Positions 1,451-47,701 of a DNA stretch of 64,000 nucleotides are shown piece by piece. Each line of letters opens with the position of its first letter. Position 1 is the stretch's first letter. A program made the position numbers and the translations under genes. Under the pieces are notes generated by a model, which was given only the letters and a program-made list of their open reading frames with translations, was not told the DNA's origin and made no database searches. The stretch is from the NCBI GenBank assembly GCA_021129515.1, contig JAJOLD010000001.1:257217-321216 (forward strand), read 5' to 3'. This stretch comes from Minisyncoccota bacterium. GTDB lineage: Bacteria > Patescibacteriota > Minisyncoccia > Phycocordibacterales > UBA918.

Positions 1451-2119
1451 TTACGAATGGTTTTTTCGATACTTCTCAATCTCTGCGTGGTTCCCTGTAG
1501 TAAATACTTTCGGCACAGTGTGCTTTTTCTTCTTGTAGATGATTGTTTCTGGACGAGTATACATCTCACCTGATGAAACACGCTCATCTTCGAGCGATTC
1601 ATAGGTACCAAGGACTCCTGGGACATTCCGCGCAACGCTGTCTACAATAGTGAGCGCGGGGAGGTCGCCTGAGGTGAGTACATAGTCCCCCACTGACACC
1701 TCTTCGGCCTTGAGGATTTTTTGTACCCGTGAGTCGATACCCTCATAGCGCCCTGAGATGAGCACTATGTGCTTATGCTTCTTTGCAAGCTTCTTTGCGT
1801 ACGCCTGGTCAAAAGTTTTTCCACGCGGCGACATCATTAACACTTTCACGTCTTTCTTCCGCCCGATTGCTTTTGCAGCCGCCTTGAGGACTGGCTCCGC
1901 CTGCATCACCATACCGGGACCACCGCCATATGGCTTGTCGTCTACCTTCTTGTGTTTATTCTTTGAAAAATCGCGCGGGTCATAGTAGCTCACCTCAATC
2001 TTCTTGCCTTTATGCTTTGCACCTTTACCCTTCTCAGCCTTCTGAGCACGCCCAAGTACCGACGCATCGGTATACGCCTTACAAACCTCTGGGAACAATG
2101 TGATGATATGGAAATGCAT
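1451..2119 (-). CDS. trmD: tRNA (guanine37-N1)-methyltransferase
   Basis: The N-terminus MHFHIITLFPE and the motifs PYGGGPGMVM, ISGRYEGIDSRV and GDYVLTSGDLPALTIVDSVAR...PGVLG are classic TrmD (SPOUT fold) signatures. Confidence 0.95.
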   Translation of the reverse strand: MHFHIITLFPEVCKAYTDASVLGRAQKAEKGKGAKHKGKKIEVSYYDPRDFSKNKHKKVDDKPYGGGPGMVMQAEPVLKAAAKAIGRKKDVKVLMMSPRGKTFDQAYAKKLAKKHKHIVLISGRYEGIDSRVQKILKAEEVSVGDYVLTSGDLPALTIVDSVARNVPGVLGTYESLEDERVSSGEMYTRPETIIYKKKKHTVPKVFTTGNHAEIEKYRKNHS

Positions 2120-10475: not shown

Positions 10476-11186
10476 TTACCATCCTTTTTTCTCAATCGCT
10501 GCGGCTGCAGCATTTTGCTCTGCTTCTTGTTTTGCGCGCCCTTGCCCTTCTGCAATTTGTTCCTCTCCAAGAAAGACACCAACGGTAAAAACTCGGTCAT
10601 GGTCAGGACCTTCTTGATTTAATACTGCGTAGCTCGGGGTAATATTGACATGCTCCTGTGCAACTTCCTGGAAGCGACTTTTTGCGTCTTGCCACAGACG
10701 TTTTTCAACGATGTTTTCAGTTTGTGCAAACAGGTACTCAGCAATAAATGCTTTTGCAGCTGCATACCCTTGATCGAGATACAACGCACCAACAAGTGCC
10801 TCAAACGCATTTGCAAGAATATACTGTCGGGCACGCCCAGTATCTTTTGCCTCGCCTTTAGAAAGGAGCAAATACTCATTAACACCCATTTTTCCTGATG
10901 CTTCAGCAAGTGACACCGTATTCACCAGTGCAGCACGAATTGCAGTCAGCTCGCCTTCAGGCTTATCTGCATATTTTTCAAAAAGAAAATCAGTGACCAC
11001 AAGCTCGAGGACGGCGTCCCCTAAAAACTCATAGCGTTCGTTATGATCCTGAGTTGCTTCTCGATGTTCGTTTAAATATGAGCGATGCGTCAATGCTACC
11101 AAGAGGTGTTTTTTTTCGGTAAAGGTCACACTAATAACATCCTCAAAACGAGCAAGATGCGCATCAATATCTACAGTTTCAGTCAT
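10476..11186 (-). CDS. rnc: ribonuclease III
   Basis: Shows the RNase III signature ERYEFLGDAVLELVVTDFLF and a C-terminal dsRBD. Confidence 0.95.
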   Translation of the reverse strand: MTETVDIDAHLARFEDVISVTFTEKKHLLVALTHRSYLNEHREATQDHNERYEFLGDAVLELVVTDFLFEKYADKPEGELTAIRAALVNTVSLAEASGKMGVNEYLLLSKGEAKDTGRARQYILANAFEALVGALYLDQGYAAAKAFIAEYLFAQTENIVEKRLWQDAKSRFQEVAQEHVNITPSYAVLNQEGPDHDRVFTVGVFLGEEQIAEGQGRAKQEAEQNAAAAAIEKKGW

Positions 11187-17822: not shown

Positions 17823-17834
17823 TTTATAAGTACC

Positions 17835-17909
17835 GTCATCGCGAGGGACGAAGCGATCCAGAGTATAGGCGCCAAACTCCTGGATTGCTTTGCATCCGCT
17901 CGCAATGAC
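17835..17909. repeat. imperfect palindromic repeat element (GTCATCGCGAGGGACGAAGCGATCCAG ... CTGGATTGCTTTGCATCCGCTCGCAATGAC) lying between the T-box and the thrS start codon
   Basis: It is a member of the same family as the elements at 31535-31609, 47553-47701 and 4013-4085. Confidence 0.7.
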
Positions 17910-17929
17910 ACCCTAATTAACATACAACA

Positions 17930-29889: not shown

Positions 29890-31430
29890 AATCCCATGTA
29901 TTTTCCAAACATAAGGCGCGTCTGCGCATCAAGACCTGGAATAGCACTAAAGACAATCATAGTAAATGGTACCAATATCCACTGCAGCATAAGGACAATA
30001 TACATAAATCGACTTTTTTCTTTAGGGCGCGGTGGCAAGAGTGTCAACGAAATCATGGAGGATACCACCAACCCAAACATAGAAATAGTCAGCAGGTCAC
30101 GCACCATGAGTGGCAGGTTGTACGACAAGACGGTCTCATGAAAGACGCGCCCGCCGAAGAAAATCGGTGTCCATCCCAAAATAAAGAGCATAATCGGATT
30201 GGTCACCAGGGACCAATATCCTTCTGCTTGCTGCAGACCAATTTTAATACGTGTACCGAGTGGAATATTTTTGTTCTTGGTGAAGTGATACACAATGTAT
30301 ACAAAATTCTCCACTCCATAGGTCCAACGGCGATGTTGTTTGTAGATATTTTTTACCGTTCCCCACAACGTTGGCGCAACGTTTGCGTCCATCGATACGG
30401 GATACGAAAGAGGCACCACATCATACTCCCCATCATTTGCCATCAGCAGATTCCAAAAAATACGTGAGTCTTCACTCACCATGTTTGTTTGCCAATACCC
30501 AATCTCATAGAGTGCTTGAAAACTCACTGAGTGTGAGGAGAACGTCGCCATACGTTCGGGGCGTTCCTGTTGCACCATCTCCCAAAATGTACTCGACATA
30601 CCGACCACACGACCAAATGCAGACGCTTCCCATATGTTGTTGTTGAAGAGTGGTACTGGCTGGAATGAGGTCTTGAGCGGACGCTTTGCCGTCATAAAGT
30701 GCCAAATGAGACAGTTGAAATAATCAGGATACACCACACTATCAATATCAAAAATAGACACCAATGCATGATTGTACCGGATACCATGTGGATCCAACAC
30801 CTTCCGTCTCAGCTGCTCAATGGCATAGGTAGCATTTGCACCTTTTCCTGCAAGCTCTCCAACTGTATCAGCGGGGTGTGTCGTAATAAGGAAATACGCA
30901 AACATATCACCCCACTTCTCTTTCATTGCAGCCGCAACCGCTTGTGCCGATTCACCCGCGCGAGCTTCCGCTGCTAAGACCACAATGACATTCTTTTTGT
31001 CATATTTAATCTTTGCAAGTGCGGTAAGTGTGGCATCAACTACTTCTTCTGACTCCTGATAAAACGGTAAAATAACAATCTGATACAGATGCCCATATTC
31101 AAAGCGAGCAACCATGTGCTCCCAGTCAAGTGACATGTGGTACCGCAGTCGTTTCCAGTTATATCGAAGATGATAGGAAAGAAACGCAGTCTTCAAAACC
31201 CAAAAGACCGCGAAGGCAATAATGAAATACGCCGCAATAAATGGTGCGTAGATAGAAAGCAGCACCACACCAATAAGTGTGGTCCATGAGGCTACACCGG
31301 GAAGCATTTCGAGCGCTCGATAAAAAACACGGTCCCTACCAGAAAGATCCGTAGCACGACCCACCTTAAAATCCTCCCGCTGTGCATACGGAAGCAATTG
31401 TGGTTTTGATACCTTTTTACGCGACGCCAT
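29862..31430 (-). CDS. family 2 glycosyltransferase, integral membrane, processive-synthase-like (QxxRW motif)
   Basis: Multiple TM helices flank a GT-A domain. The QHRRWTYG (Q-x-x-R-W) motif is typical of cellulose/chitin/hyaluronan-synthase-like GT2 enzymes. Confidence 0.82.
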   Translation of the reverse strand: MASRKKVSKPQLLPYAQREDFKVGRATDLSGRDRVFYRALEMLPGVASWTTLIGVVLLSIYAPFIAAYFIIAFAVFWVLKTAFLSYHLRYNWKRLRYHMSLDWEHMVARFEYGHLYQIVILPFYQESEEVVDATLTALAKIKYDKKNVIVVLAAEARAGESAQAVAAAMKEKWGDMFAYFLITTHPADTVGELAGKGANATYAIEQLRRKVLDPHGIRYNHALVSIFDIDSVVYPDYFNCLIWHFMTAKRPLKTSFQPVPLFNNNIWEASAFGRVVGMSSTFWEMVQQERPERMATFSSHSVSFQALYEIGYWQTNMVSEDSRIFWNLLMANDGEYDVVPLSYPVSMDANVAPTLWGTVKNIYKQHRRWTYGVENFVYIVYHFTKNKNIPLGTRIKIGLQQAEGYWSLVTNPIMLFILGWTPIFFGGRVFHETVLSYNLPLMVRDLLTISMFGLVVSSMISLTLLPPRPKEKSRFMYIVLMLQWILVPFTMIVFSAIPGLDAQTRLMFGKYMGFWVTPKHRA

Positions 31431-31534
31431 AATGGAGTGAGTATAGCCCTATTTTACGTAAATACAAGAGTGTATACGCATTAGTCCAAATGGTCTTAGG
31501 GAGTCTCTGAATATTACGTCCTCTGGGTATACCT

Positions 31535-31609
31535 CTGGATTGCTTCGGCTCTACCCGCAATGACGGACGCCCGAAGGGCGTCATTGCGAGTGGATGCGAA
31601 GCAATCCAG
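31535..31609. repeat. nested long imperfect palindromic element (CTGGATTGCTTCG ... GACGCCC-GAA-GGGCGTC ... CGAAGCAATCCAG)
   Basis: Outer 13-bp perfect inverted repeat, an inner GTCATTGCGAG/CGCAATGAC pair, and an innermost 7-bp stem. It is homologous to the elements at 17835-17909 and 47611-47660. Confidence 0.75.
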
Positions 31610-31802
31610 GGTCATGTTGCCTTGCTCAACTTTTTGTCACAGTGGATTCGGCGTCCAACTTTAGTTCACTATTCTGAGCGTCACGGATTGCTAAGCACTC
31701 TCTAGATTCGGCGTCCGCCAGTAATTCGCTGACGCTCATAACTAGCACCTGCCCAGGTTCACTGGTTCGGCGCTATAGGTAAGCGCCTCACATCGTGAAC
31801 CT

Positions 31803-31827
31803 TTCGAATCTGAGAGGTGGCTCAGAG
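31803..31827 (+). other. 25-nt inverted copy of the tRNA-Thr 3' end (T-loop through acceptor and discriminator: TTCGAATCTGAGAGGTGGCTCAGAG)
   Basis: Identical to the reverse complement of 31879-31903. The two copies flank the tRNA terminator hairpin. Confidence 0.8.
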
Positions 31828-31848
31828 GTATGCGAATACCTTCGCATA

Positions 31849-31878
31849 CAAAAAAGACAGCTGGCGCTGTCTTTTTTA
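31849..31878 (-). terminator. bidirectional terminator (AAAAAAGACAGC-TGGC-GCTGTCTTTTTT) immediately 3' of tRNA-Thr
   Basis: Perfect stem with A/T runs. Confidence 0.85.
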
Positions 31879-31883
31879 CTCTG

Positions 31884-31957
31884 AGCCACCTCTCAGATTC
31901 GAACTGAGGACCTACGGTTTACAAAACCGTTGCTCTAACCAACTGAGCTAAGGTGGC
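31884..31957 (-). tRNA. tRNA-Thr (anticodon UGU); CCA is not encoded
   Basis: Manual fold: acceptor GCCACCT/AGGTGGC, D-arm GCTC-AGTTGGTTA-GAGC, anticodon arm ACGGT-TTTGTAA-ACCGT, variable loop AGGTC, T-arm CTCAG-TTCGAAT-CTGAG, discriminator U. Confidence 0.88.
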
Positions 31958-32006
31958 GTATGAAATTGTGACTACTTACTTATTATCAAGTGGTCAAAGC
32001 GATTTT

Positions 32007-32019
32007 GCAACGGTTTTGT
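32007..32019 (+). other. plus-strand copy of the tRNA-Thr D-stem/anticodon-stem 13-mer GCAACGGTTTTGT
   Basis: The tRNA itself is on the minus strand. A further GCAACGGTT copy lies at 32127-32135. Confidence 0.7.
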
Positions 32020-32055
32020 AACAAAACTTTAAAAGAATATCCCATATTCTTTTAA

Positions 32056-32080
32056 CTCTAACCAACTGAGCTAAGCTGGC
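32056..32080 (-). other. tRNA 5'-half fragment (GCCAGCTTAGCTCAGTTGGTTAGAG: acceptor 5' strand plus D-arm) with no cognate 3' half
   Basis: It matches positions 1-25 of the neighbouring tRNA-Thr except at 1-2 bases. It is followed by unrelated hairpin sequence. Confidence 0.7.
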
Positions 32081-32212
32081 AATATTTTATTTTACATACT
32101 TCTACACTTTGCAGACGGTTTTGAATGCAACGGTTCAGGTATAAAAAATGCGCGAAAGCGCTCCGCTATTATGCGAAAAAATGAGTAAAAATGCAACCCA
32201 TATATGAATATG

Positions 32213-32240
32213 AAAAATGCCGCTTACTCAGCGGCATTTT
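32213..32240 (-). terminator. terminator (AAAAATGCCGC-TTACTCA-GCGGCATTTT) downstream of gene 32246-32638
   Basis: Stem with an A-run and a T-run. Confidence 0.8.
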
Positions 32241-32245
32241 GAGTA

Positions 32246-32638
32246 TTACTCAGTATCAGCAAATGCAGACTCAACGGTATTCGACCAACGAGCCTCCACA
32301 TCAGTGCCACTAAAATATTGATGTTTGATTGTGAATATAAACCAAAGCAATGATTGCATACCGCAATCAGCTATAGTGTAGCTTGATGTTCCTCTAGATA
32401 GTCGTAATACGGTATACACCATACAGGCATATCCAACCCCTAAAACATACACCGCAAGCCACGTATATACCACAACGGGCGTATAGTTAGCTCCAATCAA
32501 ATGCACATCAAAGTTAAAAAATGGCTCAGCCACAAATATAATTACACCAATCCCAATCATTCCGATAACCGGCATACACTGAGCAACAAATACATTACAT
32601 CGAACGAACAGATCTCTCATCGATTCCTCCTCAGACAC
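32246..32638 (-). CDS. hypothetical integral membrane protein (3-4 TM)
   Basis: Hydrophobic segments only; no family assignment. Confidence 0.5.
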   Translation of the reverse strand: MSEEESMRDLFVRCNVFVAQCMPVIGMIGIGVIIFVAEPFFNFDVHLIGANYTPVVVYTWLAVYVLGVGYACMVYTVLRLSRGTSSYTIADCGMQSLLWFIFTIKHQYFSGTDVEARWSNTVESAFADTE

Positions 32639-32700
32639 TCGATGGGTTAGAAAACAGCCCGCATCATAGCGTATTGCTGCGGGCTGTCAATGATTGCTAT

Positions 32701-33084
32701 TCAGTATAGCTGTGCATCCAAAAACTCCTTCACACTTTCAATATCCTTCTCCTCTGGATCGAAGTAGTGCGTCAAAATCCCCGCATCTTCTGCTGCTTGC
32801 GCCGCAGTCGGACTATGTTCAATATAGACCACTTGTTCAGGAGTCAGTTTGTAATGCTCGAGCACACCCTCATAATACTCTGGCTCTGATTTCGGATATA
32901 CCTTTCGCGTGTATACCTCATATGGCATTTCATCGAGGTGGAGTGATGGTGCTTTTGCGTCATCAGCGTTGGTCAAAATAATTTTTGTATTCTCGTACTC
33001 ATCGAGCAATTCATGCAGCGGACCTGAAATACCCTCTGTTTCAGTCACAAATGTTTGTAGTGCATCTACCAAAATTGTTTTCAT
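32701..33084 (-). CDS. small HAD-superfamily hydrolase-like protein, possibly degenerate
   Basis: The N-terminus MKTILVDALQTFV resembles HAD motif I. The C-terminus VVYIEHSPTAAQAAEDAGILTHYFD resembles HAD motifs III/IV. Confidence 0.5.
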   Translation of the reverse strand: MKTILVDALQTFVTETEGISGPLHELLDEYENTKIILTNADDAKAPSLHLDEMPYEVYTRKVYPKSEPEYYEGVLEHYKLTPEQVVYIEHSPTAAQAAEDAGILTHYFDPEEKDIESVKEFLDAQLY

Positions 33085-33235
33085 CCCGTTAAAGTTTATT
33101 GATTAATAAATATTACTTTTACAGTACCACCTCAACATCTTTGTTCCTGATTCACATCCCAGTATTTTTTATAAACTCTAACGGGATTCATATACTTCTA
33201 GTATACAAAATAATCGAACAGGAGTCTCCGTTCGA

Positions 33236-33667
33236 TTATGTTTTACCCAGCAAGGCGTCTTCTTTATGTTTTTGTTTTTCTTCCTCAGTGAGCGCCACCG
33301 ACTGTTTGTGTGCCTGTATCTCATCAAGCTTATTACGTGCTGTTCGCTCCTCTGTAGCAATCCGATGTGCCGTCTCTTTGTTGCGCACTAATGCTGTTTT
33401 TATCCATTGCTCAAATCCACGCACCAGTGATAATATCAGCACAAGTACCTTATGAAAGAGATAGTGTAGCGAACCTCGGAGTGCATCACGACGTACATAC
33501 GCAAATACCCCATCAAGATATTGAGCAGCCGCGATAATGACACGATCAAAAAACATGCGGGGCGTCTTCAGGAACCGTGTACCACGACGCGCTTCTAGTC
33601 GATACAAAAGTACAAGCAGTATGATACTGCTTGTACTTGCAATCATGCCAATGACCGGAGCTATCAT
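33236..33667 (-). CDS. hypothetical membrane-anchored coiled-coil protein
   Basis: N-terminal TM. The C-terminal half is charged and helical. Confidence 0.45.
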   Translation of the reverse strand: MIAPVIGMIASTSSIILLVLLYRLEARRGTRFLKTPRMFFDRVIIAAAQYLDGVFAYVRRDALRGSLHYLFHKVLVLILSLVRGFEQWIKTALVRNKETAHRIATEERTARNKLDEIQAHKQSVALTEEEKQKHKEDALLGKT

Positions 33668-47552: not shown

Positions 47553-47701
47553 ACCTGGATTGCTTTGTCATTCCACTCCGTTTCATTCCTCGCAATAACG
47601 CTCTTTCAGAACGAAAGACGCCGCCCGTAGGGCGGCGTCTTTGCGAGTGCTTGCGCGAAGCCTGTCTGCGTACGGACACGCACAGGCAGGCAATCCAGAA
47701 A
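47553..47701. repeat. composite palindromic-repeat region downstream of gap
   Basis: Contains CCTGGATTGCTTTGTCATTCC...CCTCGCAATAACG, a perfect terminator hairpin (47615-47639), GTCTTTGCGAGTGCTTGCGCGAAGC (homologous to 31585-31605), and ACGCACAGGCAGGCAATCCAGAAAT (identical to 4061-4085). Confidence 0.7.
47615..47639 (-). terminator. terminator hairpin (AGACGCCGCCC-GTA-GGGCGGCGTCT) downstream of gap
   Basis: Perfect 11-bp GC-rich stem. Confidence 0.75.

Follow-up and report, generated by a model that had tools for sequence, protein, structure and literature searches.

The region at 31440-32245 of the 64,000-nt window analyzed here, a stretch of contig JAJOLD010000001.1 from a Minisyncoccota bacterium, surrounds a functional tRNA-Thr(UGU) gene on the minus strand (31884-31957; ARAGORN; Rfam, 72.7 bits). 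This is the only tRNA gene of the window, and no other was found in the 10 kb beyond the left edge. The genes around the region are those of a GT2 glycosyltransferase (GT), a PEGA protein, a HAD-like protein, and EF-Ts. The region itself contains no credible gene: its sole open reading frame (ORF) of at least 50 aa encodes 55 aa on the minus strand (31417-31584). An earlier sequence-only reading of this DNA had recognized no noncoding RNA (ncRNA) in the region apart from the tRNA. Consistent with this, Rfam returned no family besides tRNA in the window, whether at the gathering threshold or at E ≤ 10. Housekeeping ncRNAs (tmRNA, RNase P, SRP, and 6S) were rejected as candidates as they had no Rfam or ARAGORN match, and a T-box or other known tRNA-sensing leader was rejected because Rfam found tRNA only, in the window as well as in four relatives (E ≤ 1).

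The tRNA gene is surrounded by partial copies of itself. The sequence-only reading had listed these repeats, and our analysis confirmed that they are real and far beyond chance. At 31803-31827, a 25-nt inverted copy of 31879-31903 (25/25 identities) covers tRNA nt 54-73 and 5 nt of the trailer; none of 100 shuffles gave any match. At 32056-32080, a direct copy of tRNA nt 1-25 is identical at 24/25 positions. The repeat GCAACGGTTTTGT belongs to a perfect 15-mer at 32007-32021 that is inverted with respect to tRNA nt 25-39 (31919-31933). Further repeats are GCAACGGTT at 32127-32135, GCAGACGGTTTTG at 32111-32123, and two copies of GATTCGGCGTCC, at 31645 and 31705; a nested palindrome at 31535-31609 was also present. 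Both the 13/15-mer and the 25-mer are inverted, the sole direct copy being the 5' fragment. This fragment, hereafter the pseudo-half, was rejected as a functional tRNA: neither ARAGORN nor Rfam recognized a complete cloverleaf in the window copy. A split, permuted, or intron-containing tRNA was also rejected, as the pieces do not have the order or orientation that such a gene would require and the partner half is absent from the window.

The locus was compared with 80 species-level loci of relatives (labeled in the style L001), sampled from Kaiserbacteria-like Paceibacteria (Patescibacteria, candidate phyla radiation, CPR). The gene order RpsB, EF-Ts (Tsf), mem143, tRNA-Thr(UGU), GT, PEGA is kept across these relatives, and the 522-aa GT2 glycosyltransferase adjoining the tRNA, which places the source organism among the Kaiserbacteria-like Paceibacteria, shares approximately 80% identity with its counterparts in many relatives. 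The tRNA-Thr(UGU) gene is present in 72 of the 80 loci. Searching each relative's locus against its own tRNA revealed that 38 of these 72 carry, at the equal position, the same upstream arrangement as the window, termed module 1. It comprises a copy of tRNA nt 1-24/25 approximately 110-123 nt upstream of the tRNA, a hairpin of approximately 27 nt, a copy of the anticodon loop with its reverse complement, and a spacer. A covariance model of the unit, R1, yielded 47 matches of at least 44.9 bits in 38 relatives and the window, and every match adjoins tRNA-Thr. The match in the window spans 32014-32080 and scored 83.4 bits. Loci that have the unit contain one to three in tandem (range among all loci, 0-3), some of them identical. 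Approximately 25 relatives have no upstream unit and show a plain promoter-tRNA arrangement; presence of the unit is scattered over the tree.

All parts of module 1 in the window lie on the minus strand. The pseudo-half (32056-32080), a part of the R1 match with homologous units in the 38 relatives, is followed by hairpin H (32029-32055), a 27-nt element with a 12-bp stem and a GGG loop that replaces tRNA nt 26-30. Next is hairpin P2 (32007-32027), in which the anticodon-loop copy GTTTTG (32027-32022) is paired with CAAAAC (32018-32013); with the CGTTGC that follows, the latter completes the perfect 15-mer. The leader spacer (31958-32006) appears to be in part a decayed antisense copy of the tRNA 5' half, matching the reverse complement of nt 1-15 at approximately 11/15 positions by eye. 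This antisense copy is clearer in L031, L013, and L080; across the clade, the spacer sequence varies and is not conserved. A conserved pairing between pseudo-half and spacer was rejected, as the consensus fold gave it no support. On the other side of the pseudo-half, the flank at 32081-32108 is homologous to the sequence directly 5' of the true tRNA in L014 and L016, and at 32108-32135 an older repeat unit has left degenerate traces, GAACCGTTGCA and CAAAACCGTCTGCAA (equivalent to GCAACGGTT and GCAGACGGTTTTG), the direct repeats of families D1 and D3 being spaced 120-123 nt apart. As a separate observation, the leader and trailer directly flanking the tRNA are complementary in L026, L004, L031, and L023, for example GCCTCAGA before the tRNA and TCTGAGGC after it, which would extend the acceptor stem in the precursor.

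The units track the tRNA beside which they lie. Specifically, they follow the local acceptor-stem variant, with a mean of 0.53 acceptor-strand mismatches to their own tRNA versus 1.22 when loci were permuted (0/5000; the permutation ignores the relatedness between loci). The loop copy, whether TTTTGT, ACTTGT, or ATTTGT, always agrees with the variant of the local tRNA. P2 forms part of the consensus structure of the leader, and in it the pair GTTTTG/CAAAAC becomes CACTTG/CAAGTG in genomes whose tRNA has that variant. Multi-nucleotide switches in the tRNA are followed by the units too.

Upstream of module 1, a putative tRNA promoter, P1, was assigned from the consensus at 32168-32196 (minus strand): a -35 element TTGCAT (32196-32191), a 17-nt spacer, a -10 element CATAAT (32173-32168), and a GC-rich discriminator. 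The motif TTGC-N17-19-[ACT]ATAAT occurred once per locus in 50 of 73 loci and was not found in the other 23. In every case it lay upstream of the outermost unit, with no instance between unit and tRNA. Based on this position, the units are most likely part of the pre-tRNA leader. A weak internal match, TTGCAA-17-GATAAT, lies between unit and tRNA in the window only; an internal promoter at this place was excluded as a general feature by the motif positions in the 73 loci.

In the alignment of hairpin H, each of the 12 stem pairs has changed on both sides, while pairing is kept in 93% of cells. Its covariation was 0.547; slid controls gave 0.07-0.12 and shuffles 0.156 (0/500). The alignment (A3) had been fitted to the covariance model and thus leans towards structure. 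The loop is GGG in 37 of 47 units and GGT in five. Between the window and L032, H differs at 2/27 positions (25/27 identical), both changes being compensatory, whereas the adjacent spacer differs at 39/71. The slow change and the covariation together indicate that H is constrained. A run of U follows H only in genomes with the TTTTGT-type anticodon loop, and not in those with the CACTTGT type. Since H sits between the promoter motif and the tRNA, it is unlikely, on the predicted promoter position, to be an efficient terminator.

Hairpins of the H type were also found elsewhere: one lies within the T-loop of a copy of tRNA-Leu and another, in inverted orientation, within a copy of tRNA-Ile, and the type recurs in the downstream element E2 described below. 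In metagenomes they were found in varied contexts, often as the identical 27-mer. The occurrence of H at other positions and in both orientations fits a repeat family. In 1.08 Mb of relatives, 18 GGG-loop hairpins lay away from tRNA-Thr, and only a handful of these were H-like. Separately, an identical H hairpin was observed at L104 9894-9920, L119 1500-1526, and L131 7144-7170, at the edge of an open stretch encoding an RFHIVQHL motif. This motif may be reminiscent of ISL3-type transposases.

On the 3' side of the tRNA, a second recurrent module, module 2, was found just past the terminator; it is made up of a small hairpin, the inverted copy of the tRNA 3' end, and the long hairpin E2. A bidirectional intrinsic terminator, T1 (31850-31877; inverted repeat I5), has a 12-bp stem between an A run and a T run, and relatives have an equivalent terminator hairpin after the tRNA. 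It is followed on the minus strand by a small hairpin, h2 (31828-31849; 9-bp stem), and by the inverted copy of tRNA nt 54-73 with 5 nt of trailer (31803-31827). The h2 hairpin has the same place and size in L003, L005, L014, L016, and L025, and in L002 it lies within the inverted copy; its stems vary between species yet stay paired, and its loop is CTGC in six relatives. In L002, L003, L005, L014, L016, and L025, an inverted copy of the genome's own tRNA 3' end and trailer lies 46-57 nt downstream, past the terminator, and each copy matches its own genome's trailer. The idea that the inverted copy is a primer-binding site was rejected, as its complementarity is to CAGAG of the genomic trailer rather than to an added CCA. 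By the same token, the copy was derived from the gene rather than from the mature tRNA. In the predicted fold of a read-through RNA, the tRNA 3' end lies in a 25-bp stem with the inverted copy (ΔG -89.6 kcal/mol, z = -11.7).

Further downstream, E2 (31676-31738, minus strand; nhmmer, E = 4.7e-7) is a degenerate member of a conserved hairpin of approximately 60 nt and overlaps one of the GATTCGGCGTCC copies. All E2 hits were downstream of tRNA-Thr, except for GT-upstream stretches in which the tRNA was not captured (L022 and L034). Compensatory changes affect 13 of 21 pairs in E2. In some relatives, direct copies of tRNA nt 30-74 also lie downstream of the tRNA. As a further observation, downstream pseudo-tRNA-Thr copies in L008, L028, L053, L063, L045, L035, and L044 carry structured insertions at fixed positions of the fold, namely nt 25/26, nt 44/45, the T-stem/T-loop, and nt 67/68; one recurrent insert begins GTAAGCAAAGCTTCC. 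In 11 of 72 relatives, including one of the close pair L014/L016, everything from the promoter through the leader units, tRNA, and terminator to the 3' module has been inverted as one unit, and the gap between tRNA and GT ranges from 17 to >1700 nt.

Related arrangements were found at other tRNA genes. A metagenome scan using the H pattern gave 36 loci, approximately 16 of them in tRNA-Thr contexts and four of them chance matches inside ORFs. Among these loci, the leader design occurred also at tRNA-Glu and tRNA-Ile, and the tRNA-Leu case mentioned above is a related partial copy. At L046 3520-4182, tRNA-Tyr(GUA) is followed by three tandem modules of approximately 200 nt. In each of these, a CTGC-loop hairpin interrupts an inverted copy of the tRNA-Tyr 3' end; the module also has a terminator, an E2-like hairpin, and a second, direct copy of this end. 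The ORFs between tRNA-Thr and GT in L046 had no Pfam match, and no integrase was found among them. In three of the tRNA-Thr contexts from the scan (L100 2519-2945, L109 11784-12210, and L124 1376-1802), the tRNA precedes a tandem array of three identical H-bearing tRNA-like copies of 118 nt with intact acceptor and T arms and a degenerate D-arm, which ARAGORN called tRNA-Pro(GGG) of 96-97 nt. More generally, complete H-bearing copies in some relatives were called tRNA-Pro(GGG) of 93-97 nt; the cloverleaf of the L036 copy is degenerate. Nothing comparable was seen in phage tRNA clusters, used as controls.

The sequence-only reading had interpreted the fragments as classical integrase att or excision scars, an idea in keeping with the common use of tRNA 3' ends as att sites that Williams reportedly described in 2002. 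Phage or island remnants would then lie in tRNA-Thr, and the neighboring genes at 32246-33667 would be cargo remnants. That tRNA 3' ends commonly serve as att sites (PMC9897764) speaks for this explanation, as do the direct copies of nt 30-74 that some relatives have on the downstream side and the restriction of two neighboring genes, HAD127 and mem130, to this lineage. Known cases resemble the present locus in having partial copies (attL/attR) beside a complete gene; in them, direct repeats, usually of the 3' part, bound an integrase-bearing element of kb scale, and the site is empty in related genomes (PMC9897764). In the window, by contrast, the 25-mer and the 15-mer are inverted, no direct 3' repeat is present, and the direct piece is a 5' fragment in the leader only 98 nt upstream of the tRNA, which leaves no room for an element. 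No integrase, recombinase, or kb-scale cargo adjoins the repeats at the window locus. Instead of an empty site, dozens of relatives hold the same fragments at the same positions, tracking their own tRNA, which the sequence-only reading had itself named as an outcome contrary to its proposal; relatives without the unit simply have a promoter followed by the tRNA. Searches of phage and plasmid sequences matched the tRNA alone. In viral contigs, no H module with two H-derived patterns was found; the five matches were phage tRNA clusters, which the covariance model rejected. Nor did the proposed cargo hold up: mem143 is syntenic, and HAD127 and mem130 have no tRNA-derived flanking repeats. We therefore regard att scars as a highly improbable origin of the fragments. 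What survives of the proposal is that the site has undergone repeated insertion, inversion, and duplication, as seen in the small elements, the 11 inverted units, and the copy number of 0-3.

The explanation that we favor, by a modest degree, is that the fragments represent, in this genome, a halo of self-derived modules that surrounds tRNA genes throughout the clade and arises by duplication, palindromic inserts, and conversion. The modules would be generated when the tRNA gene, rich in hairpins, is duplicated locally, both in tandem and by fold-back (sense-antisense-sense), and small palindromic repeats would be inserted as well. Unequal crossing-over, gene conversion, or template switching would then keep the copies matched to the live tRNA, the copy that is under selection. 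Module 1 would presumably lie within the pre-tRNA leader removed by RNase P, and the modules, presumably lacking an essential function, may be tolerated because tRNA processing excises the tRNA whatever its surroundings. We prefer this explanation because H occurs at other positions and in both orientations and because presence and copy number vary widely between species. Several results weigh against it. The constraint on H, whose loop is kept while its stem turns over, points to function or to the constraint of a repeat family rather than to plain decay, subject to the caveat on its alignment given above. Only one copy of H occurs in the 64-kb window. The recurrence of the design at several tRNAs, each time in a gene-specific sequence, may mean that pairing with the tRNA is selected for. 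Finally, no transposase or recombinase able to move the hairpins was identified, although no genome-wide search for such an enzyme was made.

A distinctly weaker candidate is that the modules serve the tRNA transcription unit as cis-acting RNA elements with a function. On the 5' side, the pseudo-half, H, and P2 would be mimic and anti-mimic of the tRNA 5' half and affect the folding, processing, or stability of the pre-tRNA, or would give a stable RNA resembling a tRNA 5' half. On the 3' side, the inverted copy would trap read-through transcripts in a 25-bp duplex cleavable by RNase III, insulating the glycosyltransferase gene. The window contains an RNase III gene (10476-11186, minus strand), relevant here because the 25-bp inverted repeat would be a substrate in the read-through RNA, as well as genes for TrmD (1451-2119, minus strand) and an RNase R-like protein. 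A functional role is also suggested by the slow change of H and its constrained structure and loop, by the location of the units inside the predicted transcript, by the customization of the design to tRNA-Thr, -Glu, -Ile, and -Tyr, and by an inverted copy that tracks an unconstrained trailer and has the strong predicted read-through fold (z = -11.7). Moreover, forcing a 15-bp duplex between leader and tRNA costs only 4.5 kcal/mol over the minimum-energy fold. Nevertheless, the modules are missing in about a third to half of relatives, with a copy number anywhere from 0 to 3, and H is found at other positions and inverted. Conservation of the antisense extension past P2 breaks down in a large subclade, the window's pseudo-half has an acceptor mismatch, and H with its U-run is terminator-like only in combination with the TTTTGT-type anticodon loop. 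In its boldest form, to which we give somewhat less credence still, this explanation posits an undescribed class of self-matching cis-RNA modules at patescibacterial tRNA genes, with a leader made of a 5'-half mimic and a GGG hairpin and an antisense of the 3' end after the terminator, which together would control tRNA maturation, abundance, or read-through. The complete H-bearing tRNA-like copies, three in tandem in some genomes, could likewise be processed into a novel tRNA-like RNA. We judged it unlikely that the modules represent small mobile elements, non-autonomous and homing to tRNA genes, that an enzyme encoded elsewhere moves in trans and that duplicate part of the target at each insertion, a miniature version of the att proposal. 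Such elements would account for the homologs of h2 (with its CTGC loop) and E2 after two different tRNAs, with local 3'-end termini in both orientations and in tandem arrays, for the near-identical H hairpins in many contexts, and for the insertions that fall at fixed, single-stranded points in the fold of the tRNA (25/26, 44/45, T-loop, and 67/68). However, no recombinase or transposase was found near any copy, a 120-nt unit is very small for site-specific integration, ordinary target-site duplication leaves the inverted target copies unexplained, and the conservation of positions across species fits inheritance better than repeated insertion.

No description of such an arrangement around tRNA genes was found in the literature, and the known systems that it recalls differ from it. 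As with the REP elements and the Rickettsia palindromic elements reportedly described by Ogata et al. in 2000, H and the CTGGATTGC palindrome are short palindromes that are conserved at the family level and able to sit in structured RNA genes or gene copies. Unlike REP elements, H is of low copy number (one in 64 kb) and concentrated in tRNA-derived copies at fixed positions, and no RAYT-like enzyme was identified. Quasipalindrome template-switch mutation, said to have been described by Ripley in 1982 and by Dutra and Lovett in 2006, and fork-stalling inverted triplications would explain the sense-antisense-sense patterns, the extension of the terminator hairpin into the tRNA, and the identical arms. 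To our knowledge, template switching has been seen in mutation spectra from the laboratory and in structural variants of the human genome and has not been described as a conserved architecture at bacterial tRNA genes. Chloroplast tRNA pseudogenes at inversion endpoints, reportedly noted by Howe in 1985 and Hiratsuka in 1989, are similar in that partial tRNA copies are tied to inversions; these cases are organellar, involve large-scale inversions, and have neither conserved hairpin modules nor tracking of the live tRNA. In E. coli, the 3'ETS-leuZ sponge is a functional RNA from the non-tRNA part of a tRNA transcript. The non-tRNA parts of the present transcripts could similarly act as RNAs; here, the leader mimics the tRNA itself. 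Fragments of tRNA genes are routinely taken as integration footprints, and at this locus the same signature comes from a different, lineage-wide process. Both island-finders and tRNA annotators would be misled, as illustrated by the ARAGORN calls of tRNA-Pro(GGG). For the very small genomes of the CPR, the modules imply either that partial gene copies are kept matched inside the gene's own transcript or that leader and trailer RNAs matched to the tRNA form a kind not seen before.

The flanks of the region were also examined. The gene mem143 (33236-33667) is syntenic in most relatives and is thus not cargo. HAD127 (127 aa, HAD-like) and mem130 (a 130-aa membrane gene), at 32246-33084, are absent from this position in all 80 relatives and form an insertion, specific to this lineage, that separates mem143 from the tRNA promoter; no tRNA-derived repeats were found flanking them. 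A PHROGs search of the neighboring genes gave only a weak HAD match. The left limit of the repeat region is a putative glycosyltransferase promoter on the minus strand (31440-31467), with a -35 element TTGTAT and a -10 element TATACT located 9 nt before the ATG; TATACT just before the ATG is also found in L002 and L009. No differences were seen across the region among three ENA assemblies of the same population, so far as strain-level structural variation is concerned. Logan contigs of the same strain stop exactly at 32046, 31935, and 31962 in several samples, while the ENA assemblies read through; low coverage or hidden heterogeneity in the leader could be the cause. The nested palindrome at 31535-31609, the arms of which are 87% complementary, belongs to a dispersed family with the termini CTGGATTGC...GCAATCCAG. 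This family has three copies in 64 kb (31535-31609, 17830-17915, and 47553-47700), apparently all intergenic. Like the H-type hairpins, it resembles REP- or MITE-like elements in being a short imperfect palindrome with several dispersed copies of conserved sequence.

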